DNA of 31,806 nucleotides from an uncultured Lentimicrobiaceae bacterium (GTDB lineage: Bacteria > Bacteroidota > Bacteroidia > Bacteroidales > WCHB1-69): positions 1-31,806 of the forward strand of contig CAYYHC010000002.1 of the NCBI GenBank assembly GCA_964471715.1, given 5' to 3'. Below the pieces are notes generated by a model, which saw nothing but the letters and a program-made list of their open reading frames with translations, had not been told where the DNA came from and did not search any database. Below, in pieces: positions 1 through 21,695 of this stretch. How positions within the stretch are numbered: position 1 is the stretch's first letter; every line of letters begins with the position of its first letter. Made by a program: the position numbers and the translations under genes.

Positions 1-72
1 TATTGCTACCCGATTTTCGACAATTTCAACTCGATATTATTTAGACTTAATTGATAATAAATATATACAAAA

Positions 73-876
73 ATGAAAACTATTTACAATTCATTAAAAT
101 TAGTTCTTTTTATTTCTCTTCTCATTTCATGTGATAAGAGCGATTCTGAATTGAAATCTTCTTATAGCTATTATAATGAGCCAACTTTTATTAAAAATGG
201 TCTTGTAGGATACTACCCTTTTAATGGAGATTTAAAAGATTATAGTGGCCATGAAAATCATGCGATTGGAACGCCCTCAACTTTTAATTCTGATAGATTT
301 AATAATTCTGCTGGAGCAATTCATTTTAATGGAATGACTGATTTTATAACAATAACTAATTTTAGCAAATCATTAGTCAACAACGAAGGAACAATTATTA
401 TTTGGAGTAAAATAGATACTCCCTATTTAACAAATTATCAGCCTAAATCTGTAGTTTTATCTATTGTTGATTCAGTAAACTCCTGCTTTTTGCTTAGTTA
501 TGGGATGGGAAGTTTAGATTATTCAATTGGTAACTATCCTGGATTAGGCGGAGGTAGTGTAGTTTCAAATATTAATGAAAATGGATTTAAATTATTTGTT
601 GTATCATTTACGGATAATTGCATTACGTTATATGATTTTGAAAATGAAGTATTTCAAAAAGAGACACGAAGTAATCCAAAATATTCTTTTGGATTTAATT
701 GGAATAGGAAGGAACAGGATTTGTATTTAGGTAAAAGTATTATAGATACTTTCGATTCAGGAACATTTGATAACACATTTACATACTTTAAAGGTGATAT
801 AGATGACTTATTGATATATAATCGTATTCTCACGGATGATGAAATAAAGTGCTTTTTTAATTTAGTAAAACAATAG
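73..876 (+). CDS. LamG/concanavalin A-like lectin-domain lipoprotein
   Basis: Lipobox-like LISC; motifs GLVGYYPFNGDLKDYSG and FKGDIDDLLIYNRILTDDEI typical of LamG-like jellyroll domains. Confidence 0.8.
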   Translation: MKTIYNSLKLVLFISLLISCDKSDSELKSSYSYYNEPTFIKNGLVGYYPFNGDLKDYSGHENHAIGTPSTFNSDRFNNSAGAIHFNGMTDFITITNFSKSLVNNEGTIIIWSKIDTPYLTNYQPKSVVLSIVDSVNSCFLLSYGMGSLDYSIGNYPGLGGGSVVSNINENGFKLFVVSFTDNCITLYDFENEVFQKETRSNPKYSFGFNWNRKEQDLYLGKSIIDTFDSGTFDNTFTYFKGDIDDLLIYNRILTDDEIKCFFNLVKQ

Positions 877-905
877 TAAGGATAATTAAGAAAATAAATG
901 ACAAA

Positions 906-992
906 AGCCAACATACGATATAACCAATAAGAGTAGAAGTAGTATGGGAAGGTTTGTAACCGATAAAAAGAAAAAATGGCTACCCGTTAGGG
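906..992 (+). repeat. attC-like site, degenerate or hybrid
   Basis: agccAAC 906-912; right end tggctacccGTTagggcca (977-995) matches the right end of the local repeat family; AT-rich interior does not pair with it. Confidence 0.65.
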
Positions 993-1024
993 CCAATTAA
1001 AGAAACCGCATCAAATAAACTGTC

Positions 1025-1987
1025 ATGAATTTGAAAATGTATTTTTTATTGTTCGTTTTTATATTCTCTCATCAAAATATGGTTGGGATAGAAAAATCGA
1101 CAAATACAGACTATAACAAAAAGATTAATAATATATTTATAAATCTAGATTCAGTAATTTCAAATTCACAACATAAGGATAGAACCGTAGAAGAACACTT
1201 TAGATTTGTATATAAAAAGATAAAAGATGGCGATTTAGTTGTTCGTTTTGATAGTAATCTTGTGTATGATTTTTTTGGTTGTTCCTCTTTTAATGTTTCA
1301 AAAGGTGCTAACCATGATATTGAAATGATATTTGGTAATTATATTATAGATAAATATTTAAAATATCCATACCTGGTTTATGCTATTGTAGTACATACAT
1401 TTCAATACGCCTATGATTATTATAACAATCAATCTTTATTCATGATTAGTACTGAGAATCAAATTGAAAGTATTTTTTTTAAGATGGATGCTATTACAAT
1501 AGAAGCCATGTTCTTGAAGGCCTATAGTTCATACAATAAAAACCTTGGACCATTTGAAAATCTAATAATTGATGATTTTAGTAATGGTTTACCAAGTTCC
1601 TCAGCTCTTTTTTTGAAGACGGATATTCATCTGCTTCATGAAATGGATGCATTAAAGTCAAAGAGTGGCACAAGTAAATCTCTTTTAGACGAATATATGA
1701 ATATGGGTGAAACACTGATTAAGAACTTTAAACTAGAAAATAAAAGTGAATGGGAGAAATATTGTGCCTTGATTACTTTAAGGACATATGTATATTATAG
1801 TAAACAAGTTGTTTTTGATATTGTTTATGCAAAAGATGGTATCACTCAGGAATCATTTAATTTTGATCGATACTCAGATATTAGAACAACAATAGATAGA
1901 ATAATTAATATAATTGAATTGAATGAAGAACTATATAACGTTAAAGATAAAATATTGAAGGCATATAGTGATAAGTACAAGAATTAA
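1025..1987 (+). CDS. Hypothetical protein with probable signal peptide (cassette gene)
   Basis: 320-aa ORF with hydrophobic N-terminus; no recognisable family; bounded by complementary cassette ends. Confidence 0.75.
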   Translation: MNLKMYFLLFVFIFSHQNMVGIEKSTNTDYNKKINNIFINLDSVISNSQHKDRTVEEHFRFVYKKIKDGDLVVRFDSNLVYDFFGCSSFNVSKGANHDIEMIFGNYIIDKYLKYPYLVYAIVVHTFQYAYDYYNNQSLFMISTENQIESIFFKMDAITIEAMFLKAYSSYNKNLGPFENLIIDDFSNGLPSSSALFLKTDIHLLHEMDALKSKSGTSKSLLDEYMNMGETLIKNFKLENKSEWEKYCALITLRTYVYYSKQVVFDIVYAKDGITQESFNFDRYSDIRTTIDRIINIIELNEELYNVKDKILKAYSDKYKN

Positions 1988-1991
1988 CTGG

Positions 1992-2072
1992 CCCTAACAA
2001 CATCTAAACCTCAACCGCCGCTTCGCAGCTAACGCCGCTTGCTGACGGTCGTGGTCTGGATACTCGTTAGGA
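1992..2072 (+). repeat. attC-like recombination site
   Basis: ccctAAC-aacat-ctaaacc...ggtctgg-atactc-GTTagga, 81 bp, begins 5 nt after the stop codon. Confidence 0.85.
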
Positions 2073-2147
2073 GCAACGTTAGAACCAACTTCTTTACATT
2101 TATGCAACATTCATCATTCGCAATTTAAAAATATTCATATCTACAAA

Positions 2148-4721
2148 ATGAAAAAAGTATTCTTTGTAATCATGTTGATTATACTAAAAGCCGTAACGGC
2201 TGCTGCCACCACTCAGGTGCCTGCTGAACTGCGCGGTTACTGGCAATTACCAAACAAGATTGAATCCAAAGATGATTGGGCCGGAATAAACGTGGGTGAA
2301 AACTATGTGGAATTTGTTTACGCATTATTTTCAGTGGACAGCATTCACCAGTCGGATAAAAACTATACACTATTTTTAAACCTCGAGGGAAAGTGGAATG
2401 TTACCATGTCAATTGAGCTTTCGGCAAATGACAGCGCGGCGATTGAACTGAAACAGTATAATATGTCGGAAAGATGCAAACGGTATGACCGCGATCCGGA
2501 AATCAACTTTTTGCCCGTAGCTGATTTTTCGAAGGTGATAGCCGGAAAGCGGTTTGATGATTCCAATACACGTGAATCGTTTGCCATTGAGAAAGGTAAA
2601 TTGCTGTATGATGGCAAACGGTGGAATATTCTCTGGTTGGGAGAAGTTAAGAAGCATCAATACCGCTCAATCATTGAACGTGAAGGGAACTATCGTATGA
2701 TATGGTTTGATAGGCTGGAGGATAATTCATTGAAAGTTAGCTATTATGGAAAGACGTCTTTATACAAACCAAAGGAATCGGGCAGCAAATTGGCCATTGT
2801 GGGCAATTGGTATGAACCAGAAGGCAATGCGTGGGTGTTTGGCTTTTTTGAGAAGTTTGCTATTTACGATGGGAAGTTCTGGGACTATAAAACCCTAAAT
2901 CTTCAAGAATACAAAGGAACGGCTACACTGACAAATGGGAATGAGTCGCTTCAACTGACCTTCCAAAAGAATAAGGACAACACCCTGCAGGTTGTAATCA
3001 ACAATCAGAACGCTGTTACCTATCACTTGGCCGGACGCACGCTTCCACCGTATAAAACGAGCGATACGACTTCTTTTATCGATACGCATTATGCTCGCAT
3101 TGATACAGCCTACATTTCCGGATACTTGCGCTACAAGAAAAGAAAAGAGCCTTTTAAGATAGCTGTTCGCGATCCGATTTCCGACAATGAGGTGTCTTTT
3201 TATGGTAATGTGGATGATTTGGGGCGCTTTGAGATGAAGGTCCCCTTATACAATAGTTCCATGGCTTATTTTGAATGGGGGCAAATGAATGTATTGGAAC
3301 CCAATGAACACTATGTTGTTTTTTACGATGAAATAGGGAAGCAAACGCTGTTTATGGGTAAGAATACCCGCTGCCAAAATGAATTGGCAACAATTGATTT
3401 TTTCAAAATGCCCCAGGGTAATAAGGTCTCCGGTAAAACCACGCTTGATTTTTTAAGTGCTCAAAAAAGTGTTTTTGCCGTGAGAAAAGCATACATGGAT
3501 AGCATTATAAACCAAATGCCCAACCCTTCTTACAAGTTTCGCTATTTTTCAAACAACTATATTCGATACAACATAGCATTTGATCTGATGCAAAGACGTT
3601 TCTTTTTAGATAGAAAGAATCAGGAACAATTTCCCGTTGAATACATGGATTTTGCAAGGGATACCCTGCTTTCCAATCCAATACATCCTGTGACGCTGAA
3701 TCGGGATTTATTAAACTTTATCCGTGATTATGTGGGCTATTACACCGATCAAAAAGGAGCTATTTCCGTCAATACAATTGATGCCCTGCTTTCCTTGATT
3801 AAGTCTGAAAAGATCAAACTGGATGCCTCCGATTATCAACTTGTGGAAACAATTAAGACTGCTATTGGGTTTGAATTAAAAGGGGATACTGTTCAGGCTA
3901 AAAAGGTGGTCGCTAATTTTACACAAAAAGAGATTGATCGATTAAATAACATCACCAACAAGGTTCAAAACAAGAAAGCTATTTCAGCCGAATTGTCCAG
4001 GATGACGTCGGAAATGCGGTTGAAAAGAACGATTGAAGCCTTGCATGAGGAGATTCAGGATAAAAGCATCCGTGATTATTATGTAGCAAAATCACTTTAC
4101 GAAAAATTGAATGGTGACAGAGCTCCCTTGGATTCAAAATTGCTCGACAGTTTATTGGTGCAGGTGGAATCACCGGCTTTCAGGAAGAAAGTGATGGATG
4201 CTCAAACGTTTTATACCGAATTATCCGGGCAAAGTATAGAGCATGTCGAAAGCTTGAAAAACACCGATCATTTGAGCAACGCAAAAAATGCCGATTCGTT
4301 GTGGGTGGAACTAATTCGTCCCTACAAAGGAAAAATTATTTACGTTGATTTCTGGGGTACGTGGTGTGGTCCCTGTAAAAAGGAAATGGAATACGTTGCT
4401 GACTTGAAAAAGCAATTTGTGGGTAAGGATGTTGTCTTTATGTATTTGGCCAACAATTCACCGGAAGTCAGTTGGAAAAATGTCATCAAGGACTATTCGC
4501 TAACGGGCGAGAACGTGGTGCACTATCGGTTGCCTGCAGAGCAACAAACCATGATTGAGCAACGATTTGGAGTCAATGCCTTTCCCACCTATATGATTGT
4601 GGATAGGAATGGGAACATAGTAAACACCGATCCACCAAGTCCAAGCCAAAAACAAGCAACGGTAAGCTTTCTGAACGACTGGTTAGAGAAAAAAAATGAG
4701 AATACTGAAATCAAAAGATAA
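2148..4721 (+). CDS. Large exported protein with C-terminal TlpA/redoxin (thioredoxin-like) domain
   Basis: Signal peptide; VDFWGTWCGPCKKEM CxxC motif; FPTYMIVDRNGNIV cis-Pro loop region. Confidence 0.85.
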   Translation: MKKVFFVIMLIILKAVTAAATTQVPAELRGYWQLPNKIESKDDWAGINVGENYVEFVYALFSVDSIHQSDKNYTLFLNLEGKWNVTMSIELSANDSAAIELKQYNMSERCKRYDRDPEINFLPVADFSKVIAGKRFDDSNTRESFAIEKGKLLYDGKRWNILWLGEVKKHQYRSIIEREGNYRMIWFDRLEDNSLKVSYYGKTSLYKPKESGSKLAIVGNWYEPEGNAWVFGFFEKFAIYDGKFWDYKTLNLQEYKGTATLTNGNESLQLTFQKNKDNTLQVVINNQNAVTYHLAGRTLPPYKTSDTTSFIDTHYARIDTAYISGYLRYKKRKEPFKIAVRDPISDNEVSFYGNVDDLGRFEMKVPLYNSSMAYFEWGQMNVLEPNEHYVVFYDEIGKQTLFMGKNTRCQNELATIDFFKMPQGNKVSGKTTLDFLSAQKSVFAVRKAYMDSIINQMPNPSYKFRYFSNNYIRYNIAFDLMQRRFFLDRKNQEQFPVEYMDFARDTLLSNPIHPVTLNRDLLNFIRDYVGYYTDQKGAISVNTIDALLSLIKSEKIKLDASDYQLVETIKTAIGFELKGDTVQAKKVVANFTQKEIDRLNNITNKVQNKKAISAELSRMTSEMRLKRTIEALHEEIQDKSIRDYYVAKSLYEKLNGDRAPLDSKLLDSLLVQVESPAFRKKVMDAQTFYTELSGQSIEHVESLKNTDHLSNAKNADSLWVELIRPYKGKIIYVDFWGTWCGPCKKEMEYVADLKKQFVGKDVVFMYLANNSPEVSWKNVIKDYSLTGENVVHYRLPAEQQTMIEQRFGVNAFPTYMIVDRNGNIVNTDPPSPSQKQATVSFLNDWLEKKNENTEIKR

Positions 4722-4731
4722 AAAAAGCTGC

Positions 4732-4792
4732 TCCTAACACTACCAAAGCCACATGCGCCTGAAGGAACACGTGGCCTAGCCACCTGTTAGCG
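4732..4792 (+). repeat. attC-like recombination site (short type)
   Basis: tcctAAC-actac-caaagcc...ggcctag-ccacct-GTTagcg, 61 bp; inner stem acatg/cacgt. Confidence 0.85.
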
Positions 4793-4860
4793 AACATTGC
4801 AAGAAAGTTGAAGCAATTGCATACTATCTTATGCTTTTAAAAACAGATAAAAATCAAGCA

Positions 4861-5298
4861 ATGAAAACGAAACTTACATTTGGAATTTTAATCCTGATAA
4901 TATTTATTGGATGCACTTTCAGTTATAATAAGAGTGAAATAAACGGAATTGAAGCCCTAATTGAAGCAGAAGATATTACAAAATCATTTTATGATTATCA
5001 AACAACTGATAGTAAGGATATTTTCAAATTATTTAGTAGCGACTTTTTAAATAGTATAGGAGAAGATAGTTTGCTCGCATACTTAAAACATAAAAAAATA
5101 CTATTGGGGAACCTTAAAAAGGATTCTCTTGAAGAATGGGAAACTAAAATTGTAAAAGGGAAAAACTCTAGCTCTAGTTACTTTTTAAAATATAACAATG
5201 TATATGAGAATAGCCTTGTAACTGAATCTTTTAAAATGAAAAAAGGATTTTTAGGCAAAATAAAGATTATAGACTATAGATATGAGATTAAAAACTAA
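4861..5298 (+). CDS. Hypothetical lipoprotein (cassette gene)
   Basis: MKTKLTFGILILIIFIGC lipoprotein-like signal; alternative start at 4831. Confidence 0.7.
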   Translation: MKTKLTFGILILIIFIGCTFSYNKSEINGIEALIEAEDITKSFYDYQTTDSKDIFKLFSSDFLNSIGEDSLLAYLKHKKILLGNLKKDSLEEWETKIVKGKNSSSSYFLKYNNVYENSLVTESFKMKKGFLGKIKIIDYRYEIKN

Positions 5299-5305
5299 AA
5301 ACGTT

Positions 5306-5386
5306 TGCCAACACCACCCAAACCACAGTCGCCGCTGCGTAGCTAACGCCGCTTGCTGACGGTAGTGGTCTGGATATTCGTTAGCG
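5306..5386 (+). repeat. attC-like recombination site
   Basis: tgccAAC-accac-ccaaacc...ggtctgg-atattc-GTTagcg, 81 bp; core gctaacgccgcttgctgacggt shared with the site at 1992. Confidence 0.85.
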
Positions 5387-5503
5387 GCACGCATAAAACC
5401 GGCAATTCAAAGTTCCATTAATTGTAAAAGGTAGAAATCCAATACCACCAAGAGATTGAATGATAACCACAGTATTAGCTTTTATAATTTAAAACCGAAA
5501 AAC

Positions 5504-5932
5504 ATGAAAAAAGCATTTGTCTTATTAAGTTTGGTGATTGTCTCATTTGCATTATCGGCACAAGTTCATGTTCCCGCCTCCAAATCGATTATTGGAGTAT
5601 GGAGACAAACTGGCGCAATGACTAATACCGGTGAATTAGTTAAAGTGAAATCCGGCAATTATAAGGTTATCAATCCTGATGGTACATCTTACACCATTAT
5701 AACGTGGGGTAATGGTTCTACAACGATAGGCTTTTATGCTACTTGCAAAATGACATCAGATAGTACATGCAAAGAACATATTTTTAAACATGCCAATCCA
5801 GAGATGGATGGAAAAGATGTTGCAATTAGATTTAGATTGATTGATGAAAATAATATGAGAATGGATTGGAATCTTGGTGAAAGATGGATAAATGAGAGCT
5901 GGACGAGATTACAAGTTGGGAATCAGAATTGA
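5504..5932 (+). CDS. Exported protein, DUF4488-like
   Basis: Signal peptide MKKAFVLLSLVIVSFALSAQ; IIGVWRQ...NYKVINPDGT pattern resembles Bacteroidota DUF4488 (family recalled, not searched). Confidence 0.6.
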   Translation: MKKAFVLLSLVIVSFALSAQVHVPASKSIIGVWRQTGAMTNTGELVKVKSGNYKVINPDGTSYTIITWGNGSTTIGFYATCKMTSDSTCKEHIFKHANPEMDGKDVAIRFRLIDENNMRMDWNLGERWINESWTRLQVGNQN

Positions 5933-6020
5933 GTTTATATCAGATAAACATATAAAATGATGTAAGTCAATTGGCTGATAAATAAAAAATGACACCTACT
6001 ACCTTATATAACATTAAACT

Positions 6021-7091
6021 ATGAGAATAATTTTCACAGTGATTTTTATTCTTTCATGTCTAATTTCATTTGGACAAACTTCTGCAATTGACGATTTATG
6101 GAAATTGTACAACTCACAAGATTTAAAATCAGCAATTGAAAAAGCGAAATCACTTCTTGAAAATGACCCCCATAATATTGACTTAAATTTAATAATTGGG
6201 CGTTCATACACAGACCAAACAAATTATAAAAATGCTATTACTTATCTTGAATCGACAGTAAAAAATGATAAAAACAATTCTTGGCGCAAAGCATGGGCAC
6301 TTGAATATTTAGGTACTTGTCATTTCATGCTTCAAGATTATGCCAATTCAAAAAAAACTACTATAGAATGTTTTGATTTAAATGTTACTAAAAATGTAAC
6401 ACAAAATGCGTACAAACAAATCTTATTGTTTGGATTTGACGATTTCTACAAGGATTGGAAAATTGTTGAATCAGATAATTTTAGGTTTCATTTTCAAAAC
6501 ATGAGTGATTCTGATATAAAAAGCTATGTATCATCGCGAGAAGAGACTTTTCAGAATATAAATAAATTCTTTACTAGCAGATTGCCAAAGAAGATTGATT
6601 TCTTCGTTTGGGAATCAAGAGAGGATGCAAAGAACCTGTTAAAAGTCAATTTAGGATTTGCTGACCCTGGATTTTGTATCGTTCATTCTCATTATCAGCA
6701 AACAAGAGGACATGAAATGACCCATGTTATATCAAACTATTCGACCAAGGTTATTACTAAAACTGGATTGATAAATGAAGGTACTGCGGTATGTTTTGAC
6801 CAAACAAATCAAAATAAAGAGCAAATTGTAAAAGATTGGTTAAAAGAAAATGACAAGAAAATCTCAATTGGAGAGATTTGGGACAATTGGAAAAATTATT
6901 CAGAGGAATTAACATATCCGCTTTCTGGATTATTTGTAAAAGAATTGATTGATACATTTGGCAAGGAAAAATTCATCGATTTTTTCAGTAATCAGACTTA
7001 TGAAAATGCGAAAATAGTATTCGGTGCTAATCTTGACAAAATGATTAAAGAGTTTGAAGATAAGATAAATAAAATACTACAGACAACATGA
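6021..7091 (+). CDS. TPR-containing exported protein with zincin-like (HExxH) domain
   Basis: Signal peptide; N-terminal TPR-like helices; GHEMTH followed by INEGTAV. Confidence 0.7.
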   Translation: MRIIFTVIFILSCLISFGQTSAIDDLWKLYNSQDLKSAIEKAKSLLENDPHNIDLNLIIGRSYTDQTNYKNAITYLESTVKNDKNNSWRKAWALEYLGTCHFMLQDYANSKKTTIECFDLNVTKNVTQNAYKQILLFGFDDFYKDWKIVESDNFRFHFQNMSDSDIKSYVSSREETFQNINKFFTSRLPKKIDFFVWESREDAKNLLKVNLGFADPGFCIVHSHYQQTRGHEMTHVISNYSTKVITKTGLINEGTAVCFDQTNQNKEQIVKDWLKENDKKISIGEIWDNWKNYSEELTYPLSGLFVKELIDTFGKEKFIDFFSNQTYENAKIVFGANLDKMIKEFEDKINKILQTT

Positions 7092-8688
7092 TGCGACAGA
7101 TTCAAATTTTAGCATTGCTTTTATTTCTATCCGCTTGTGGGCAAAAAAAAGTAACGATTGAGGCATTAACTACAACAAAAAACGAACTTGAAAAACCCAT
7201 AGGTATTTCTTTTGAGGTGGACAATGTTGAGTTGGCGAATGCTTTGCTTAAAACTGATTCGGCAAGATTTATTTTTGAAAATAAAATTGGCAAAGAAATT
7301 CGTTATTTCCCCGAAGTACAAATTAATGATTGTCTGGTTAATTGTTCCAATAATGGTTTAATTCAAACCATCCAGGAGTGTTATGATAATCATCGCCCAT
7401 TGGTATTAACACCTGATGTAATCTGGTTGGCGATATGTCAAGGCGTTTCGATTCACATTAATGAACAGTATGATTCGCTTGAAAATACAATTTTCAAAGA
7501 ACACAAACCAGATGAAATTATCATTAGAAATGATGACCTGGATAAATCCAATAATTACTGGGGAAAACTGATTGCTTCGTTTGCAAATGAAACAAAGAAG
7601 TACACGCGTGATGATTTTTATTCATTTTTTGTTTCTGAGTTTACAACAACTACTCCAATCATCAAGACTACTTATCAGATTACATTGTTGGAAAGCTATA
7701 AGAAAGCATTTGAATACATTGGTGAATCCGGTTGCGGTATACCATCAATTTGTCTTACTGGAACCAAAGCAGATTGGATAAGTATATACAATAAACTGGA
7801 TATGCTGGATAAAATAGGTCTAGCCAATTGGAAAAAAAATCTAAAACCAATTATCTCAGAATTTATCAGTGCATCTGAAGGACACATAAAAATGCCACTG
7901 AATATAATGCGTTTTATATATCGGGTTGGATTATTAAGTTCTTTCCCTATATAAAAGAGCATGAATCCGATGGTGTATATATTAAAGAGCGTGATGAAAC
8001 CAGATTTGGAGACATTTTTCTTACAAATAAATTTATAGATGATAATGACTATTTACTTTCAACATTATCAACGGACAACTTTCCATCAGGCATAGCAAAG
8101 GTTCCGATCACCTGGAATAATTATTACAAGAAAACAACAATTAAAATGGAGGTTTATGCTGGATTCTTTGCTATAAAACAATATCACGATAAAAGTCTTG
8201 AGCCATTTGTTTCATGGGCAATCTGCGAAAAAAATGCAAAGATTGCCAATCATAGTCTGGTAGAAAATGAAAGTCTAAACTTAAAACATCAACCGGATTA
8301 TTGGTCACCAAATTTTGCATGGAGGTTAACTGATTCTGCTATATATGACGTTAAAAGGTTTAAATCACAAAGCATAAGTCTTGCGTATATAAAATCAAAG
8401 ATTCTTGATTCATTAAGAAGAAATTCACGCTTTAATAGTGCTGAATACAGTAATGATACCATTCAAATTGAAATATTGTCAAATGGTAGGCCTGCAGGGG
8501 TTACAATGTATAAGTCAAAAAATGTGCAATTGTCTAATTATATCAAAGGTTTGATAAAAGGTTTACCCGAACAATGGTTTCCTGCATTAGCACATCCAAC
8601 AGATGTTTTGGATCTGATGGATGCTATTTCAGACGAAGAAAATAAAATAAAAGTAAGAGTAAACAGTATGGTAAAAATTGGATTGTAA
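7088..8688 (+). pseudogene. Frameshifted DUF4419-like lipoprotein
   Basis: LSAC lipobox; NGLIQTIQECYDNHRPLVLTPDVIWLAICQG motif; frame shifts -1 near 7888 and continues KNATEYNAFYISGWIIKFFPY... without a stop into ORF 8146..8688. Confidence 0.75.
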
Positions 8689-8699
8689 GTAAGTACTGG

Positions 8700-8771
8700 C
8701 CCAAGGAACATCTAAACCCCAACCGCCGAAGCGCCTCTTGCTGACGGTAGTGGTCTAGATACTCGTTATAA
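8700..8771 (+). repeat. attC-like site with mutated left core (AAC changed to AGG)
   Basis: tggcccaagg-aacat-ctaaacc...ggtctag-atactc-GTTataa; aligns with the 1992 site; interior shortened. Confidence 0.8.
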
Positions 8772-8774
8772 GCC

Positions 8775-9266
8775 ATGTTAGAGCCCACTATGTTGGTATC
8801 TGCCATTTTAAATCAAAGAAAGTTGTCATATGTACATTTGCCAAACAGTATTTTAGATATTGATGTTTTTGCTTTTTCTATGTGCGAGCAATTGGAATCA
8901 GTACTATTGCCATCGGATTTAGATAGCATATCAGATGCGTTATTTGCCGGATGTCAAAAATTGAAACACGTAAATATTCCAAATGGATTAACGTACATTG
9001 GTCATAAAGCGTTTTTTCTTTGCATGAGTATTGAATCTATTTCGATACCAAAATCAGTAGTTGACTTGAATGGTTGTGCTACATTTCTCGGATGCAAAAG
9101 CTTAAAGAAATTTGTTGTGTCATGGCTACAACCTGTCCAAATTCACCCGCTTATGATTGATGATATTGGTTCAAATCTTTGTGAGTTAGTTGTTCCAAAA
9201 GGTAAGTTGAAAAAATAGAAAGAAGCCAATGGTTGGAAAAATTTTAAAAAGATTGTCGAATCATAA
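8775..9266 (+). pseudogene. BspA-type leucine-rich repeat (LRR_5) protein remnant
   Basis: About four 23-aa repeats (e.g. LKHVNIPNGLTYIGHKAFFLC); in-frame TAG at 9216-9218 interrupts the KK*KEANGWKNFKKIVES tail; no signal peptide. Confidence 0.75.
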
Positions 9267-9280
9267 TCAGAAATCGCTGC

Positions 9281-9360
9281 AGCTAACAACATCTAAACTC
9301 CAACCGCCGCTGCGCAGCTTCACCGCTTGCATACGGCCGGTGTCTGGCTACTCGTTAGCT
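9281..9360 (+). repeat. attC-like recombination site
   Basis: agctAAC-aacat-ctaaact...tgtctgg-ctactc-GTTagct, 80 bp. Confidence 0.85.
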
Positions 9361-9510
9361 CTAATCGTAAAACGCACAGGTCTAGTTTTCTACAATTGAA
9401 TTTGAAAAGAAATGCATTAAGCTTGGTTTGACAAACAGAAATTTCAGAAAAGCGGAGACAATTAAATTTTGGTATTACCTGATACAAACAACTATAAAGA
9501 CTGACAGAAA

Positions 9511-9984
9511 ATGGATTTAATAGGGAAAACAACAATTAACCCACTGTTTTTTTATTCGGGAAAGATTTTGGGTTATATAACGTGGATTGTTCAGTTGCTA
9601 TTAATAATGGGAATGGATGTAATTAACAGATTAACATGCAGATATAATGAATATTTGTCTTTCACGTTGCTTTTTGTAGGATTGGTTTTTATTGTACTTA
9701 GCCTAATAAATTTGGGTCGCTCAACAAGATTGGGACTGCCTACAGATAAGACAGTTTTTAAAACGAATGGTCTCTATAGACTAAGTAGAAATCCAATGTA
9801 TGTTGGGTTTAATCTGTTGACTATATCGTCAATGATTTACACTTTAAACATCTGGATATTAGTGCTAGGGATTTATAGTATAGTTATTTACCATCTGATA
9901 ATTTTGGGAGAGGAACGATTTTTGAAAAACAGATTTGGTGAGCAATATTCAGCCTATTTACTAAAAATTCGGCGATATTTGTAG
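9511..9984 (+). CDS. Isoprenylcysteine carboxyl methyltransferase/PEMT-family membrane protein
   Basis: Several TM segments; GLYRLSRNPMYVG and EERFLKNRFGEQY motifs. Confidence 0.85.
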   Translation: MDLIGKTTINPLFFYSGKILGYITWIVQLLLIMGMDVINRLTCRYNEYLSFTLLFVGLVFIVLSLINLGRSTRLGLPTDKTVFKTNGLYRLSRNPMYVGFNLLTISSMIYTLNIWILVLGIYSIVIYHLIILGEERFLKNRFGEQYSAYLLKIRRYL

Positions 9985-10048
9985 ATAACGTTAGATGACA
10001 AGATTAATTATTTTTGTCCCCATTATCTCAAGATAAAAAAACGACCAG

Positions 10049-10109
10049 GGCTAACAACCGCCTAAGCCATAGCCACCAAAAGTGGATGCGGCCTGGCTAC
10101 CCGTTAGCT
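10049..10109 (+). repeat. attC-like recombination site (short type)
   Basis: ggctAAC-aaccgc-ctaagcc...ggcctgg-ctaccc-GTTagct, 61 bp. Confidence 0.85.
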
Positions 10110-10198
10110 GCCATAGTAACAGTCCGTAACTCATATGAGTTCGATTTATCAACAAAGGATATACAATAATAGAATTTCAGTACAAAATTGAGGATAAT

Positions 10199-10654
10199 AT
10201 GAAAGAAATTAAGAATTTATCTGAAGGCAATTTTCATACAGCTATTGATTTGGGGTTGTTTAGCGAATTATTCGATTATTCGCTGATTCACCCAGTGAGT
10301 AAACGTGAAATTGAAGGTAAGGTTTTTCTAAAAAATGCAACGAAATCAACTGGTACAGAGATATCATTTAATTCCATTCCGCCTAAAACAGAGGTTCCTT
10401 ATTTTCATATACATCGAAAGAATGAGGAAACATATATAATTCTTCAAGGATCCGGATACTTTCAAGTAGATGAGAATTGTTTCAAGATCAAACAGGGAAG
10501 CATTATTAGAGTTTCTCCAGCTGGCAAACGTGGATTGGTAAATACCTCAGATGAGCAGATGATTTATTTAGTAATTCAATCGAAAGAAAATTCACTGGAA
10601 GAATATACCACAGCTGATGGTGAGATGCTTCCTGTTGATCCTAAATGGAGATAA
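10199..10654 (+). CDS. Cupin-domain protein
   Basis: PYFHIHRKNEETYIILQGSGYFQVD (cupin motif 1) and IRVSPAGKRG (motif 2). Confidence 0.85.
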   Translation: MKEIKNLSEGNFHTAIDLGLFSELFDYSLIHPVSKREIEGKVFLKNATKSTGTEISFNSIPPKTEVPYFHIHRKNEETYIILQGSGYFQVDENCFKIKQGSIIRVSPAGKRGLVNTSDEQMIYLVIQSKENSLEEYTTADGEMLPVDPKWR

Positions 10655-10666
10655 ACAAACTACGGC

Positions 10667-10749
10667 AGCAAACACAGCCTAAGCTACAGCATTCACTCAG
10701 TCGAATATGTACCTTCGATTTCGGCCGTTGGCCTAGATACCCGTTATGT
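10667..10749 (+). repeat. attC-like recombination site
   Basis: agcaAAC-acagc-ctaagct...ggcctag-ataccc-GTTatgt, 83 bp. Confidence 0.8.
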
Positions 10750-10770
10750 GGCATTTTAAAATAAAGAAAA

Positions 10771-11526
10771 ATGGCATTCTTTACATTTGAAAACAAGAAA
10801 GTTTATTATAAAGAGATTGGGACAGGAGAGCCGATATTACTTTTAGCCGGAAATACAGCTTCTTCAAAGATGTTTAAATCTATAATTGGAAAATACTCTA
10901 AAGATTTCAAAGTGATTCTGATTGATTTTCCAGGTCATGGAAAATCTGAAAGACTTGAAAAATTTGAAATTGATTTTTGGCATTATAACTCAAGAGTATG
11001 TTATCAGTTGATTGAATTTTTAAAACTTGATAAAATATCAATTATTGGAACAAGTGGAGGTGCATTAGTTGCAATTAATTTAGGGTTAGAAAATCCGGAA
11101 AGGATTAATTATTTAATTGCAGATAGTTTTGAAGGTGAATATCCCTTAGATTCTTATATAGACTCATTAGAAAGTGATAGAGAAAAAGCTAAAAAGAACA
11201 TATTTGCAAAATTATTTTGGTTTTATAATCATGGTTTTGATTGGAAAAAAGTAGTTGATTTGGATACAGAGATGCTGGTTAATTTCTCCAGGCAAGGTAA
11301 GTCATTCTTTCATAAGTCAATTTCTGAATTAACAGTTCCTACTTTATTGTCAGGTAGTAAAGTTGATGAGTATTGCGATTCATTGGATAAAATATATGAA
11401 GCATTGAAATTTAAAAATAATAAACTAGAAATTCATATGTTTGAGAAAGGGAAACATCCAGCAATGCTAACCAATAAGAATGACTTTTATGAAATAGTGA
11501 AAAACAAAATAAAAAACGCAATATAA
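10771..11526 (+). CDS. Alpha/beta-fold hydrolase
   Basis: DFPGHGKS; nucleophile elbow GTSGG; C-terminal GKHP. Confidence 0.85.
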   Translation: MAFFTFENKKVYYKEIGTGEPILLLAGNTASSKMFKSIIGKYSKDFKVILIDFPGHGKSERLEKFEIDFWHYNSRVCYQLIEFLKLDKISIIGTSGGALVAINLGLENPERINYLIADSFEGEYPLDSYIDSLESDREKAKKNIFAKLFWFYNHGFDWKKVVDLDTEMLVNFSRQGKSFFHKSISELTVPTLLSGSKVDEYCDSLDKIYEALKFKNNKLEIHMFEKGKHPAMLTNKNDFYEIVKNKIKNAI

Positions 11527-11567
11527 TTGAAAAGAATTATAAAAAATCTAATAAATAACAAAACCAC

Positions 11568-12146
11568 ATGAAAACACGTGAACTTTATTCTATTGTTTTA
11601 AAGATTATTGGCTTGATATCGTTGTGGCATTTAGTAACCATTTTATTTCCTATATTATTCTCTGGCGTTTTTTTATCTAAAATGTTATTTTCAGCCGTTA
11701 ATTTAGTACCTGTTAGCTATCTGTCAGCATCATTATTTGTCATGATTCTTCAGTTGGCATTGGTGTTAGTTATCTCGATTTATTGTTTGTTTCGTACTGA
11801 AACTCTGCTCAAGGTCTTAAAGTTGAATGATGATTCAACGTTGGAGATATTGTCAGAGAGAAAAGTACTATATCATTTACTTGTATTGTCATTTGGCGTG
11901 TTCTTGTTTGCCGATGGTTTAAACAGTTTTTATACGATAAATACAAAAACAGACACAATAAGTGATATGTCAAAAGCGATGTATACAGTAAATAACACTC
12001 TAAGTATTGTACAAATGACAGAATCAAAGAATTACAGTCTTAATTATTTTGCATTTATTGAGTTATTGATAGGACTAATTCTGTTGATTAAATCTAGAGC
12101 TGTTACAAAATGGATTCTTTGTAGGGTTGATTCGTCCAGTTATTGA
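11568..12146 (+). CDS. Hypothetical membrane protein
   Basis: About four hydrophobic segments. Confidence 0.7.
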   Translation: MKTRELYSIVLKIIGLISLWHLVTILFPILFSGVFLSKMLFSAVNLVPVSYLSASLFVMILQLALVLVISIYCLFRTETLLKVLKLNDDSTLEILSERKVLYHLLVLSFGVFLFADGLNSFYTINTKTDTISDMSKAMYTVNNTLSIVQMTESKNYSLNYFAFIELLIGLILLIKSRAVTKWILCRVDSSSY

Positions 12147-12345
12147 GCAGATTAGAGATCTGTACTTCATGAATTTTGCTGAAAGAGTGACGTCAATTCA
12201 CTTAAAGATTGAGAGTGATACAAACAATATTGTCGATATAAATACCGTAAATGAAAGATTGGATTGTGTGTATAATGATTCGATTCTAGAAATTTATGTT
12301 CAAGATGAAACGTCAGTTACATCATGTTTTAGTGGGGGCAAATAA

Positions 12346-12402
12346 AAGTACATAAATGCTTTTCTTTAATAAAATCAACTGCGCCGTAGCTATAAGTTAT
12401 GC
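12346..12402 (+). repeat. Degenerate attC-like site (only the right core is convincing)
   Basis: GTTatgccg at 12396 complements cggcacAAC at 13315-13323 after the next gene (8/9); left part (gtacataaa) is degenerate. Confidence 0.5.
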
Positions 12403-12431
12403 CGCATACAATCATACCAATATAAATAGAT

Positions 12432-13307
12432 ATGCTTACAGAAAATATTGATAACCAAATCGAGTTTAATCAAGGCAAGAATATTTTTCTTGATCGATTG
12501 GATTTTTTTCAATTTGCAGAAGAAACGGTTAAGGCTATTTCAAATATTGATCAGTTAAATCCAGATTCAAAAGAAACCTTAATTGATTACACTACTGATA
12601 AAGCAATAGAAGAATTTTGTAGGATAAACCAATATTACTCGTTTGACTCAAAGGCAAAAAATGAGTTAAGAAAAATCTACTCTGATTTATTTGGGACTTT
12701 TCAGACAAAGACAGATTCGATTGAAAATATTTCTAAGAATCATTATGAAAAACTAAAAGAGTGGATTAGAGAAAGTAATCCTTTTGCTGAAAAAATTTAT
12801 AAGAATAACAACAAGAATGTTAATCCAATTGCTTGCTCAGAATATAGTCCTGATTTACAAATCAATATATTAAAGATTGATATTGAACATTTAAGGCAAC
12901 CTGTTTTAGATATAGGTTGCGGAAGTCAGGGACATTTAGTTAATTATCTCAAAAATCTAGGGGTTGAAGTTTTTGGTATTGACAGATTTAGGTTTAAAAC
13001 CTTAAATATGAAAACAGTAGATTGGTTGGAATTTGATTATGGAAAGGAAAAGTGGGGGACAATAGTAAGTAACTTAGGTTTTTCCAATCATTTCATTCAC
13101 CATAATTTGAGAGAAGATGGAAACTATATTGAATATGGAAAAACATATATGAATATTTTGAAATCATTGAAAGTTGGTGGATGTTTCCATTATGCACCAG
13201 ATTTGCCATTTATTGAAAAATATCTTGACAATAATCAGTTTGACTTAAAGAAATTCGAGATAAATGAATATGGTTTTAAAACGACGATAATAAAAAGAAT
13301 GAAATAA
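12432..13307 (+). CDS. Class I SAM-dependent methyltransferase
   Basis: VLDIGCGSQG motif I; FGID; LKSLKVGGCF. Confidence 0.8.
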   Translation: MLTENIDNQIEFNQGKNIFLDRLDFFQFAEETVKAISNIDQLNPDSKETLIDYTTDKAIEEFCRINQYYSFDSKAKNELRKIYSDLFGTFQTKTDSIENISKNHYEKLKEWIRESNPFAEKIYKNNNKNVNPIACSEYSPDLQINILKIDIEHLRQPVLDIGCGSQGHLVNYLKNLGVEVFGIDRFRFKTLNMKTVDWLEFDYGKEKWGTIVSNLGFSNHFIHHNLREDGNYIEYGKTYMNILKSLKVGGCFHYAPDLPFIEKYLDNNQFDLKKFEINEYGFKTTIIKRMK

Positions 13308-13316
13308 AGTACGACG

Positions 13317-13350
13317 GCACAACATAGTGTATAAAATATTGGGGTTAATG
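13317..13350 (+). repeat. Truncated attC-like site (left arm only)
   Basis: gcacAAC-atagtgtataaaatattgggg begins 10 nt after the stop codon; no matching right arm follows. Confidence 0.5.
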
Positions 13351-13399
13351 TATTTCAGTTGCCAACATCTACAGTGAATCTTAATTATTCAAAAGAAAT

Positions 13400-13790
13400 C
13401 TGTCCATTTTAACAAGACATATCGATATGGGATATACTTTTGATTATGTTCATGAATGGGATTTGTTAGGTAAATAGTTGACTGACCATTGGACTCGTAT
13501 ATCTAATCCATATGGATTTTATGTCCACGAAGCCAAGTCTGGTGGATATCTTAATTTGGGGACATACTTTTTTTTAGACGAACATCTCATTTGTACCCAA
13601 GTCAAGATTGGATGTTTATCCTAATCTTCGAATGAATGCTGTAAGAAGTTTAATAACTCAGGATTTATAGAGAATTTGCAAAGCAAGATTCTGGTTCATT
13701 GGTTCGTGAAGATGCTTTCAAGCAGCTTATTGATAATGTGTACATTATGAGAGAGCTATCCTTGCGCGCATTTTATAAAATTAGTTGAAG
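13400..13790 (+). pseudogene. Degraded coding remnant, possibly HEAT/leucine-rich-variant repeats
   Basis: Interrupted frames read DVYPNLRMNAVRSLITQDL* and AKQDSGSLVREDAFKQLIDNVYIMREL. Confidence 0.35.
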
Positions 13791-13916
13791 GCTATTTTTT
13801 TGAAAAACGACAATTCTATTTTACGAGAGAAAGGTTGGGTATCGTGGGAAAAACTTCCAGACGAACGTAAAGCAAAAGGAGTCGGATTTACTTATGTTAA
13901 TAAAAAATGATATACG

Positions 13917-14360
13917 ATGAGAATCAAAAAGATTATCGAAAATAAGAAACAATTTCTGGATTTATTGTTGTTGGCAGACGAGCAGGAAAATATGATTGAC
14001 AACTATTTGCCGAGTGGAGAGCTGTTTGCATTATATGACGATGATTTGAAAAGTCTCTGCGTTGTAACACCGATAAATAACGAAAGTTGTGAGTTGAAGA
14101 ATATTGCAACCTACGAGAAATATCAAGGCAAGGGCTACGGTAGAGCATTGATAAGTTTTATTTCTGATTACTACAAAAACACCTACAAAACAATGCTTGT
14201 GGGAACAGGCGAAACGCCTTCAATCTTGTCATTTTACGAAAATTGCGGATTTGAAAAGTCGCATCGGGTAAAGAATTTTTTTACAGACAATTACGATCAT
14301 CCAATGTTTGATGGCGACATCCAACTTATTGATATGATTTATCTAAAAAAGGATTTATAG
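13917..14360 (+). CDS. GNAT-family N-acetyltransferase
   Basis: [21 protein letters not shown] (motif A); FYENCGF. Confidence 0.9.
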
Positions 14361-14386
14361 GAAAGTGGGATGGCAATAAAAACGAA

Positions 14387-14466
14387 GACTAACATTACAT
14401 AAACCCCAGCCGCAGCTACGCAGCTACGCTGCTCGCTGACGGCCGGGGTCTGGCTACTCGTTGTAA
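14387..14466 (+). repeat. attC-like recombination site
   Basis: gactAAC-attac-ataaacc...ggtctgg-ctactc-GTTgtaa, 80 bp; inner stem ccagccg/cggccgg. Confidence 0.85.
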
Positions 14467-14481
14467 CAATGAACTGTGACA

Positions 14482-15405
14482 CTAGAAACGCATAAAGAAA
14501 TCCCACGTTTCTTTGGCAATCCAGTTGACATCAGAACCGGCATCTTTGACGTTTTCCGTATGGCCACCAACGAATGAACCGAACATGACCGGATATTCTG
14601 CAGGAAGACCTTTGAATTCAGTGGTAACATGAGTCGTCTTTGTCGTGGCTAAGGGTATTTCCGGCATTTGTTTCAAGCCATTGTCTTCGATGTGTGTCAA
14701 TACACAGTACTTGCCTCCTTGCTTGCGTTCATCGGAGTTGACATACTTGCAAAGTCCATCTTCGGTACCTGTTGTGCTGAAGAAAGCCAATGGTTTGTGT
14801 TTGTTTTCAGGCAGGTAAATGTTCCAGTTGGCAGGAGCATAACACGCTACAGCACGCAGGTCGTCCTGGAATTCCAATGACAAGGAGTAGGTAAACATGG
14901 CACCAAAGCTGAAACCGCAACTGTAAATGCGGGAAACATCTATGCTCAACTTATCTTTGAACAGTTTAAGCATATCGGCAAAGAAGATGTGGTCTTTGTC
15001 ATCACGCGTACGCCAGGGAGAACCGTCGGTGTACCCCTGAGGTGCCACGAAAATGACAGGTTCATTGCTTTTTTCGGCATAGGTTTTTAACCCATAATAG
15101 TTGTTGTCAACCATTGTTTTCATGCTGCCCCCCATCATGTGCATGGTAAAAATCAAGCGGTATGATTTTTTCTTGTCGTAGTTTGCGGGGATGTCAATGG
15201 TGTATTGGCGTTCAAGTCCGGCACTGGTCATGGTATAAATACCGCTTTTGAAATCACCCAGTTCTTTGCCGTAACCGGCACTGCGAACCGGCGCATTTTT
15301 AAGATTGCGGGCAGCATTGACTGAGTTGACCGTTTGGTGGCTGGCACATCCCGTGAGCGCTAAAATTGAAACTAAAAGGAGAAAGAGTACTACTGTTTTT
15401 TTCAT
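14482..15405 (-). CDS. Secreted esterase lipoprotein (feruloyl esterase/PHB depolymerase-like alpha/beta hydrolase)
   Basis: LTGC lipobox; FTMHMMGG; VAPQG; GFSFG nucleophile; GGHT. Confidence 0.75.
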   Translation of the reverse strand: MKKTVVLFLLLVSILALTGCASHQTVNSVNAARNLKNAPVRSAGYGKELGDFKSGIYTMTSAGLERQYTIDIPANYDKKKSYRLIFTMHMMGGSMKTMVDNNYYGLKTYAEKSNEPVIFVAPQGYTDGSPWRTRDDKDHIFFADMLKLFKDKLSIDVSRIYSCGFSFGAMFTYSLSLEFQDDLRAVACYAPANWNIYLPENKHKPLAFFSTTGTEDGLCKYVNSDERKQGGKYCVLTHIEDNGLKQMPEIPLATTKTTHVTTEFKGLPAEYPVMFGSFVGGHTENVKDAGSDVNWIAKETWDFFMRF

Positions 15406-15698
15406 CGTTCATGATTTAAAAATGATTCTTTGTTTTTTCTTGTTATCTTGTATGTGTTAAACAACTGATGTTCGTTTTTACGGTTTGTCCACTATCCTTG
15501 TTTGGAATGGAAACGAGTAAAGCTGCATATGAATACCAAGCGACTTTCCTTTATTTACAGGGCGAAGATACACATATTTCTGTTTGAGTATATGTCAATA
15601 ACATTTTATATAGATGTTGCCAAGAGCCCTGTCTTTTTACGTCAATATTAATTGTTATGATTTTAAACCAATGCTTCGTTTTTGGTTTACCGAAATCC

Positions 15699-15713
15699 GG
15701 ATACCCGTTAGCA
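15699..15713 (+). repeat. attC-like right-end remnant
   Basis: gg-ataccc-GTTagca matches the family right end (compare tag-ataccc-GTT at 10734); 34 nt upstream of the WYL gene ATG. Confidence 0.5.
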
Positions 15714-15740
15714 ACAATATAACAACCACACACATAGACA

Positions 15741-16439
15741 ATGAATAGAATTGACAGGCTTACAAGCATACTTATACAACTTCAATCCAAACGACTGATA
15801 ACTGCTGGTGAAATAGCTGAACGGTTTGAAGTTACAAACAGGACAATTTACAGAGATATACAAACATTACGGCTTGCAGGTGTTCCAATTGGCGAAGAAG
15901 AAGGAAAAGGTTATTTTCTAGTGGAAGGTTATCGGTTGCCACCTGTAATGTTCACAATGGAAGAAGCGAGAGCTTTGGTAACAACTAGTAAAATTTTAAA
16001 CTACCATACCGAAGATTCTCTTAGACATAATTATGAATCTGCACTTTTGAAAATAAAAGCAGTTTTACCACTCAAAGACAAAGACAAACTGGAATTTTTA
16101 AATGCAAGAATTGGATTTCATGAACCATGGGCACCGACAAGTTTATATTTAGACAGTATCCAGCATGCAATTACCGAAAGCGTAAAACTGAAAATGGCCT
16201 ATCAGACAAGAGGAGAAGATCAACTAAAAGATCGAACCATCCATCCTTATGCTGTTTATTTCAGTGGTGCTGTTTGGACAACCATTGCCTTTTGTGAATT
16301 ACGACAAGAAATAAGAGAGTTTCGCCTTGACAGAATAAAAGAACTAATCGTGCTTCAAGCTCATTTCAAACCCGACAAGACTTTCTGTATTGAACATTAT
16401 TTAGAAGAACGTTCAAAAAGATTATTTTCAAACCCCTGA
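15741..16439 (+). CDS. YafY-family HTH-WYL transcriptional regulator
   Basis: MNRIDRL...AERFEVTNRTIYRDIQTL wHTH; GYFL; WYL-like WTTIAFCELRQEIREFRLDRI. Confidence 0.9.
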   Translation: MNRIDRLTSILIQLQSKRLITAGEIAERFEVTNRTIYRDIQTLRLAGVPIGEEEGKGYFLVEGYRLPPVMFTMEEARALVTTSKILNYHTEDSLRHNYESALLKIKAVLPLKDKDKLEFLNARIGFHEPWAPTSLYLDSIQHAITESVKLKMAYQTRGEDQLKDRTIHPYAVYFSGAVWTTIAFCELRQEIREFRLDRIKELIVLQAHFKPDKTFCIEHYLEERSKRLFSNP

Positions 16440-16452
16440 CAAAGGGCTGTCC
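16437..16452. promoter_or_regulatory. Candidate operator TGACA-N6-TGTCC
   Basis: Near-palindrome overlapping the WYL stop codon, 38 nt upstream of the hydrolase ATG. Confidence 0.4.
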
Positions 16453-16489
16453 TATGTGCCTTTTATTTTTGCTTCAAATTCAAACAAAA

Positions 16490-17380: not shown

Positions 17381-17442
17381 TTTATAAAATAAGAAAGAAG
17401 CATAATTAGTAGATATTTGCAATACATAAAAAAAAATTGTTG

Positions 17443-18864: not shown

Positions 18865-18882
18865 GAAGGGAAACAAACTGCT

Positions 18883-18890
18883 TATATTTG
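18883..18890 (+). promoter_or_regulatory. Bacteroidota -7 promoter element TAnnTTTG
   Basis: TATATTTG ends 7 nt before the ATG at 18898. Confidence 0.5.
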
Positions 18891-18897
18891 TTACACG

Positions 18898-19752: not shown

Positions 19753-19908
19753 ATGGATGTTACTATTGAATTCTTGTGATGCATTTTTCCATGCAAACGG
19801 AATTGTTGGTTGAAAAACCTGGCTATGAACCACGTTCAATTTTTTGACTCTTATGTTCGTATTGTTCTTCTGGATACTATTTATCTTTAAACAAGATTGG
19901 AATACATA

Positions 19909-20235: not shown

Positions 20236-20292
20236 AGAGTATGGGTCAATTATTATTCAGTTTACACGAAAAGTATATAACCAGTTATAACC

Positions 20293-20730: not shown

Positions 20731-20819
20731 GGTCTCTAACGTTTTTTTCTGATTTTTCAAAACAAATGAATAAAAGAGATGTTATACTGGAATAATCTGA
20801 TACGTTAATCTGCAAAAAA

Positions 20820-21215: not shown

Positions 21216-21245
21216 TTGCCATATGAAGGAAGTGAATATAGAATA

Positions 21246-21608: not shown

Positions 21609-21695
21609 TTGTGAAACACAGTTATCAAACTTCTTGTAAAAAACTATTCAACTGATTATAAAAAGGATGACGGGAATAAGTCAGCGAGTTAAAAC

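Follow-up and report, generated by a model that had tools for sequence, protein, structure and literature searches.

Organization of the cassette array

Contig CAYYHC010000002.1 (C2; 31,806 bp) of a metagenome-assembled genome (MAG; G000) assigned to an uncultured Lentimicrobiaceae bacterium of the order Bacteroidales was analyzed over its whole length, referred to here as the window. The MAG comprises 2.15 Mb in 253 contigs (38% G+C) and is 84% complete, with 3.8% contamination. The first 15.7 kb of the window carry a series of open reading frames (ORFs) separated by short imperfect palindromes, and our analysis confirmed that this region (1-15.7 kb) is a real integron-type cassette array, of which the window holds the distal part. 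An earlier interpretation made from the nucleotide letters only (the sequence-only reading) had listed nine AAC...GTT palindromes between unrelated, co-oriented genes. All nine exist at the positions given, and the ORFs between them are indeed unrelated, but one ORF lies on the reverse strand, all the others being on the plus strand.

Eight of the palindromes (1992-2075, 4732-4795, 5306-5389, 8700-8774, 9281-9363, 10049-10112, 10667-10753 and 14387-14469, plus strand) form one aligned family of co-oriented sites of 63-87 nt, each with an xCTAAC 5' end and a CGTTAG 3' end. These sites are intergenic, more G+C-rich than their surroundings, and fold into hairpins. In the structure written for them, an R helix of 6 bp is followed by a spacer (5 nt on one arm, 4 nt on the opposite one), an interrupted L helix of 15 bp and a loop that varies between sites. 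In this two-helix structure 80% of the alignment cells are paired (77% in the R helix and 82% in the L helix), compared with 27-49% when the partners are slid by 1-3 columns, and six pairs are changed on both sides (covariation). The elements by which attC sites are recognized, i.e., R''/R' boxes with AAC...GTT, L''/L' boxes, an unpaired spacer and a variable loop within ~55-140 nt, are present in this family.

A bottom-strand covariance model trained on these eight sites (with the 906 site excluded from the training) gave them scores of 54-96 bits (E 1e-13 to 1e-24) and detected nothing else, either in the other 16 kb of the window or in the 2.1 Mb that make up the rest of the MAG. This search of the whole genome, proposed as a check in the sequence-only reading, shows the sites to be restricted to the array. 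The ninth site (906-994, plus strand) is a weak, AT-rich attC-like sequence, R'' GCCAAC ... R' CCG/TTAGGGC (the slash marks the crossover point), which scores 12.9 bits (E 0.22) and is the best non-training match on the correct strand; no stable fold was found for it, and the bases following its G pair 9/9 with the R'' box of the site of the next cassette. The distance from the preceding stop codon to the start of the site is 5-30 nt for seven of the nine, as had been claimed for most of them (within about 30 nt), and 63 and 65 nt for the other two.

A generic inverted-repeat finder overlooked the sites, which were recovered by reading the sequence and with the covariance model; Rfam is not known to include a family for attC. 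A loose regular expression produced thousands of chance matches across the genome and was useless. Matches of a degenerate pattern in Vibrio, which resembled a validation on superintegrons, lay inside a 350-aa coding gene, were unscored by the model and are regarded as chance, as are the pattern matches in Lysinibacillus, Buttiauxella and similar genera (~35 chance matches had been estimated before the scan).

Split-site rule and cassette content

In integrons the crossover takes place between the G and the TT of the 3' box, and each cassette therefore begins with bases, TTRRRY, that pair with its own 5' box. The 9 nt preceding the C of each AAC were compared with the 9 nt following the G of every site, in a 9x9 matrix. 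For sites 1992, 4732, 5306, 10049 and 10667 the best partner was the preceding site (9, 9, 7, 7, and 8 of 9 positions, respectively), the values against their own 3' ends being 7, 4, 4, 5, and 5 of 9. The preceding column is the best one in five of the eight rows of the matrix, while about one row in nine is expected by chance. The paired 9-mers vary between cassettes, and therefore the matches do not result from repeat identity. Past recombination at the canonical crossover point is thus shown and, together with the family alignment and the covariation, this bears out the attC/cassette layout suggested by the sequence-only reading.

The intergenic position of the palindromes, their relatively high G+C content and the presence of hairpins after stop codons would also be expected of repetitive extragenic palindromic (REP) elements, terminators or small mobile inverted-repeat elements. 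That the palindromes are elements of this kind and not recombination sites is, however, extremely improbable: they are confined to one 15-kb stretch and always have one orientation and strand, so that the dispersal typical of REP elements and bacterial interspersed mosaic elements is not seen, no T-run follows the sites, and the split-site rule ties the 5' box to the start of its own cassette, which neither terminators nor REP elements explain. Moreover, one gene family of the window is delimited elsewhere, in another array, by sites of another type (described below).

Cassette A (1-986, plus strand), whose 5' boundary lies off the contig, contains an ORF (73-876) with a weak match to Laminin_G_3 (concanavalin-like) and is closed by the degenerate site 906-994, in which position 986 is the crossover G. 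Cassette B (987-2066, plus strand) carries a 320-aa ORF (1025-1987) without a Pfam match and site 1992-2075 (96 bits; split-site pairing 9/9), whose bottom strand folds with -15.4 kcal/mol (z -2.25). It is followed on the same strand by cassette C (2067-4786), encoding an 857-aa protein (2148-4721) with a C-terminal thioredoxin/redoxin-like domain and ending in site 4732-4795 (54.4 bits; 9/9 vs. 4/9 with its own 3' end), and by cassette D (4787-5380), with a 155-aa ORF (4831-5298) without a Pfam match and site 5306-5389 (87 bits; 7/9 vs. 4/9). The compound cassette E (5381-8765, plus strand) contains four ORFs (DUF4488, TPR/peptidase-MA-like, DUF4419 and one unknown) and ends in site 8700-8774 (68.9 bits), which has a degenerate R'' box and departs from the split-site rule (3/9); no internal sites were seen in the intergenic sequence of this cassette.

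The next three cassettes, also on the plus strand, are single-gene units: cassette F (8766-9354) with a BspA-type LRR_5 ORF (8775-9218) and site 9281-9363 (90.1 bits; split-site pairing only 5/9), cassette G (9355-10103) with a PEMT/ICMT-like methyltransferase (9511-9984) and site 10049-10112 (55 bits; 7/9 vs. 5/9), and cassette H (10104-10743) with a cupin (10199-10654) and site 10667-10753 (60 bits; 8/9 vs. 5/9). The compound stretch I (10744-14460, plus strand) comprises genes for an alpha/beta hydrolase and a GNAT, three further ORFs (two unknown and one of 291 aa) and 600 nt of non-coding DNA, and is closed by site 14387-14469 (83.8 bits). In the last unit (14461-15715) the reverse-strand ORF (14482-15405) encodes 307 aa and has a faint esterase match. 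A possible terminal remnant site lies at ~15650-15715, where only an L'-R' end can be recognized.

Three remnants had been named in the sequence-only reading, at 12396, 13317 and 15699. The first two are decayed boundaries within stretch I, an R' end at 12396 and two R''-L'' halves at 13314-13380. The ..AAG/TTATGCCGC junction at 12396 opens a cassette starting at 12397, and the R'' box predicted for it is found (8/10) at 13314-13323, i.e., at the second remnant. The remnants are real only in part: at the third, only the L'-R' end of the family is matched (GGATACCCGTTAGC), the predicted R'' box is found at 7/10 and the covariance model makes no call. With one weak site, three remnants and two compound cassettes, the array is partly decayed.

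Extent of the array and public matches

A public bioreactor-metagenome contig (L028, from run SRR8925824) contains the first gene of the window and a further 611 bp upstream, which add one site (49.5 bits) and the end of another ORF. The array therefore runs past the contig start, in agreement with the proposal that the integrase is out of view and that the array continues upstream. The additional upstream sequence was not found in the MAG, and a metagenome scan for an upstream recombinase yielded only a homologous cassette elsewhere. This homologue of the first gene (75% identical) is a cassette in another array (L152), with other neighbors and another site type, and therefore the first-gene family has moved as a cassette at some time.

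Public contigs start or stop exactly at the ..CCGTT of a site (the end of L131 and both ends of L152); assemblies of such arrays break at the conserved 3' box. Contigs from the runs of three studies match the window from position 882 on and share a different sequence before it; this junction could mean that the 906 site has an alternative upstream neighbor, or that a second copy exists at another place in the array. Two contig joints located inside sites (5332>14440 and 5333>10088) were rejected as evidence of excision, since their sides are only 23-24 nt long and may stem from other sites of the array.

Recombinases of related arrays

A degenerate pattern derived from the window sites revealed the same site type in several Bacteroidales and Paludibacter MAGs. 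The same type is also present in a complete 4.12 Mb chromosome of the order (OW818699.1; G151, the same as G407), in which the covariance model finds 47 matches, 45 of them in one orientation over 1,785,412-1,858,793 (73 kb). No canonical IntI is encoded on this chromosome. The same strand carries a gene for a 428-aa recombinase, with ~6 kb between it and the first model match that follows; the protein is XerA-like (NF040815, 222.8 bits; cut-off 220), has a short Xer-type core, and contains 17 aa where the IntI model has ~60 positions. A near-identical recombinase is encoded in G155, where sites of the window's type (3 model matches) follow 2.2 kb later and the array is cut off by the end of the contig. 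A conserved primary site, ..ACACGGGTG/TTA, is common to the two genomes, and in both the first cassette behind it obeys the split-site rule (9/9).

In G151 (L082), ~3.8 kb of small ORFs (9410-13260) lie between the recombinase gene and the conserved primary-site region. This stretch is absent in G155, is flanked by palindromes of the form CAGACAGTGTCTG, and may be an inserted element.

The same order of elements was found in six more genomes of other families (G190, G282, G516, G156, G222 and G432), in which the recombinase gene is followed by a short hairpin, a few bases, GTTR and rule-obeying cassettes: the next cassette starts at G/TT and ends in a site whose 5' box is exactly complementary. 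The split-site rule is thus upheld in eight related arrays. The recombinase gene is co-oriented with the cassettes in G151, G155 and the further genomes checked. The site types vary by lineage, and several are 110-130 nt long and invisible to the narrow model built from the window sites. The conserved N-terminal extension of these recombinases, used alone as a query, was found in 30 of the 401 genomes of the order that were sampled. Of the 23 such loci at which the gene is complete, 14 lie on a contig that breaks off 103-507 nt behind the recombinase stop codon, and five contigs end exactly on GTTA, GTTG or GTTAG. Such assembly breaks at the crossover would point to population or strain variation in the first cassette.

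One of these arrays (L130; G190:C3, reverse strand) contains the same 287-aa cassette with the same flanking site twice, at 6276-7139 and 10266-11129, which is a cassette duplication within a Bacteroidales array.

Canonical integrases of the order and extrahelical bases

Canonical IntI proteins with the full IntI-specific insertion near patch III, scoring above the family cut-off (TIGR02249; 325-493 bits), are encoded in eight of the 401 genomes. In the alignment a ~40-aa insertion is common to all canonical IntIs (those of Vibrio and four from the order) and missing from both the N-extended enzymes and the ordinary Xer proteins. In the tree the canonical IntIs group in a clade with support of 98/96, and the N-extended group falls outside it. 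A model search of the 1.5 kb around the order's canonical IntI genes gave no site except for one weak 17-bit match.

One of the canonical integrases (L088; G471:C68, 493 bits) is encoded on a 4.2-kb contig of a Bacteroidales MAG, together with G+C-rich attC sites that are class-1-like. This may be a contaminant contig, because its amino-acid make-up is unlike that of the other sequences in the tree alignment.

When the arms of the window sites were aligned against each other, only mismatches and no bulge were seen in the L box. On the bottom strand the R''-L'' arm shows no bulged bases, and in each of the four long sites a single extra T is present on the opposite arm. The two sites adjoining the canonical IntI of L088 have extra bases on the top-strand 5' arm, i.e., classical extrahelical bases. 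This comparison was made by simple alignment and its result is provisional. In the solved VchIntIA-VCR (Vibrio cholerae repeat) complex the additional domain of IntI reportedly contacts the extrahelical bases. Going by the simple alignment and this reported contact, a joint absence of the IntI domain and of extrahelical bases would be coherent.

Flanking region and host of the contig

The part of the window without sites (15741-31806, plus strand) carries a mix of accessory genes, including those for a WYL/HTH regulator, a hydrolase, a second lepB, SMR, YjbR, GNAT, HAD, pirin, a fucosidase, DoxX and GH9, and these right-hand ~16 kb gave no covariance-model matches. The HTH-WYL regulator gene (15741-16439) stands at the junction of array and flank, ~25 nt after the last site remnant. 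The small-multidrug-resistance (SMR) gene (19897-20235, plus strand) is wholly overlapped by an antisense 120-aa ORF (19887-20249) without a family match, which is probably spurious. At roughly 24 kb the G+C content of the flank rises from ~0.38 to ~0.50. The genes beyond this point (24000-31806) encode an RNase T-like exonuclease (minus strand), pirin, a fucosidase with F5/8 domains, DoxX and GH9, and look like a second block of different origin.

Almost no DNA is common to the contig and 18 genomes of the MAG's genus. Comparison of the right flank with genomes of the same genus, and with the one that encodes the closest GH9, showed no synteny beyond single genes. The second lepB (17437-18864) encodes a protein that is 45-50% identical, over its full length, to LepB of other families, and the genus-type lepB of the MAG is located on another contig (C231). 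The GH9 protein has 75% identity to a protein from another family, with which only that gene is common, and none of 24 genomes from the family of the MAG carries the GH9 gene. Since the contig has little DNA in common with the genus and a second lepB of another family's type, it is, judging from these comparisons, probably either mis-binned or acquired (by horizontal transfer or as a large island). The location "in a Bacteroidota chromosome" given by the sequence-only reading therefore stands only at the level of phylum or order, and the contig may not belong to the genome in which it was binned.

The recombinase of the window array

No tyrosine recombinase is encoded on the 31.8-kb contig, which with its 8-9 sites falls under the definition of a cluster of attC sites lacking integron-integrases (CALIN), a label that is assembly-limited here, the contig being cut inside the array. 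Nothing in the MAG scores above the TIGR02249 cut-off for canonical IntI, and no canonical IntI was detected in 150 genomes of the MAG's family. Among the Xer-like genes of the MAG, that of contig C12 (280 aa) has no site or array beside it and converges on dnaK, 84 nt away, and it was rejected as the enzyme of the array; in the tree its product falls with the N-extended group, although on a branch that is long and unreliable, and the NCBIfam model matched by this group is matched by the C12 product too. Likewise rejected were a broken C-terminal Xer-like fragment beside era on contig C202 (340-825) and the weaker Xer-like matches on C24 and C64. The C202 fragment is most like the C12 gene; its conserved LLGH reads LLGN and the upstream frames are closed.

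We consider it probable that the window array is served by a non-canonical Bacteroidales platform with an N-extended, Xer-like recombinase of the kind found in the related genomes. The sequence-only reading had placed the recombinase and attI upstream of the window or in trans, and had proposed a test for the IntI-specific insertion. The related arrays of the same site type sit behind a Xer-like recombinase without this insertion, so that a classical IntI is not the most likely enzyme and the proposed test would probably be negative even on the true one.

It is unlikely, though well within reach, that the window holds an ordinary integron array, classed as CALIN because the contig is cut, whose cognate canonical IntI lies upstream or elsewhere in the true host. 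The canonical size of the sites and their canonical R and L boxes would suit such an array, as would the eight genomes of the order with IntI above the cut-off and the uncertain host of the contig. On the other hand, the complete chromosome described above combines 45 sites of the same type in one array with the lack of a canonical IntI, and the window sites do not have the two bulged bases found in the sites adjoining a canonical IntI. Furthermore, no site of the window's type was detected in nine genomes with canonical or near-canonical intI matches (G471, G480, G281, G361, G535, G400, G179, G319 and G232; seven of the eight above the cut-off and two others, the matches including a split gene just below it), although the covariance model is narrow and its silence in these genomes is weak evidence.

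Much less likely still is the absence of any dedicated enzyme, the sites being used in trans by a housekeeping Xer-like recombinase, such as the 280-aa protein of C12, or the array being a dead relic. The grouping of the C12 protein with the N-extended clade and the decay of the array are in line with this explanation, as is the sequence conservation among samples reported below. However, the C12 gene stands apart from any site, C2 and C12 may not share a cell, and at the arrays of eight other genomes a dedicated enzyme is encoded nearby.

Several observations weigh against an array served by the N-extended platform. Its own recombinase and primary site were not recovered, the N-terminal extension query finding nothing in the 84%-complete MAG, and the link to the platform is drawn from site-type similarity to two genomes. 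Canonical divergent integrons do exist in the order, for instance in G480, where a divergent intI on an AT-rich contig is accompanied by rule-obeying cassettes. Three of the eight cassettes of the window (the two multi-gene stretches and cassette F) fail the split-site rule. No recombination was observed. Parts of the array recur at 100% identity in wastewater runs of three further studies, the samples with such matches spanning 2019 to 2025, and the only site bridged by a listed public piece (10049-10112) shows the same gene order. Such identity and order fit a sedentary array, and we put the chance that the window array is still being rearranged at about one half.

Proposed mechanism and comparison with known systems

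In the mechanism that we propose, each cassette would consist of one or more promoterless genes ending in a folded attC-like site, and a tyrosine recombinase would insert and excise cassettes by cutting between the G and the TT of the 3' box, the sites acting as single-stranded hairpins. The platform, composed of the recombinase gene and the primary site, would lie upstream of the contig start. Its enzyme would be of the type seen in the relatives, a Xer/XerA-like protein with a conserved N-terminal extension of ~150-340 aa and without the IntI-specific insertion, transcribed in the direction of the cassettes. New cassettes would enter at an attI-like hairpin ending in ...G/TTR, which in the relatives lies behind the enzyme gene, usually at a distance of 50-250 nt (1.5 kb in G155 and ~4.7 kb in G151). 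The chances are evenly balanced that a separate Xer-like lineage carries out integron-type hairpin recombination without the IntI additional domain, its sites correspondingly lacking extrahelical bases; the N-terminal extension or the hairpin primary site would then provide site and strand recognition.

The array resembles chromosomal integrons (e.g., the Vibrio superintegron) and CALIN elements in its co-oriented, mostly single-gene, unrelated cassettes, in its 60-90 nt AAC/GTT palindromes with an unpaired spacer, an L box and a variable loop, in the similarity of the sites within the array, and in the G/TT crossover evident from the split-site rule. It differs from them in that the recombinase of its relatives lacks the IntI insertion, has a long N-terminal extension and is co-oriented with the cassettes, that the primary site of these relatives is a short hairpin ending in GTTR and not a duplex attI, and that the sites have no bulges on the R''-L'' arm. 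The canonical integrons of the same order (e.g., G480, G281 and G400) have a true IntI with the insertion, an intI gene divergent from the cassettes where checked, and no site of the window's type. Co-oriented integrases of the Treponema type are reported still to carry the IntI additional domain, unlike the recombinase of the related arrays. Features shared with integrons whose intI is co-oriented with the cassettes (e.g., in Treponema; PMC3607928) are the common direction, the chromosomal location and the occurrence outside Proteobacteria.

The XerA-like score and the short Xer-type core of the recombinase in the related genomes recall Xer/dif systems (XerC/D and archaeal XerA). Xer sites, however, are duplexes of ~28 bp with two binding arms, and not hairpins of 60-130 nt placed after every gene, and they are not known to follow a split-site cassette rule.

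Recombinases without the insertion that were found near attC sites were judged not to be IntI in the work that defined CALIN (Cury et al., 2016; PMC4889954), and the additional domain was reported as necessary for activity (Messier and Roy, 2001, as cited in PMC4889954). Integron surveys, in which the integrase is defined by this insertion, describe Bacteroidota as almost free of integrons. In that of IntegronFinder 2.0 (10.1101/2022.02.28.482270) one complete integron (Salinibacter) is reported for Bacteroidetes, everything else being In0 elements. In reviews, Bacteroidota are counted among the integron-bearing phyla. Full-text literature searches found no paper describing the N-extended Bacteroidales platform.

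Implications

Standard integron searches would class such Bacteroidales arrays as integrase-less. If the proposed system is real, the additional domain is no universal requirement for cassette capture, and surveys that filter by this domain undercount a system present in roughly 7% of the sampled Bacteroidales genomes. The window sites, being small and of canonical size, would make a convenient assay substrate. Should the N-extended enzyme prove to be the cassette recombinase, the rules of hairpin-site recognition could be compared between two solutions, cassette pools would be under-sampled by polymerase chain reaction and hidden Markov model methods tuned to IntI, and the gene-capture platforms of Bacteroidales from anaerobic digesters, wastewater and sediments would be more diverse and more widespread than recorded.

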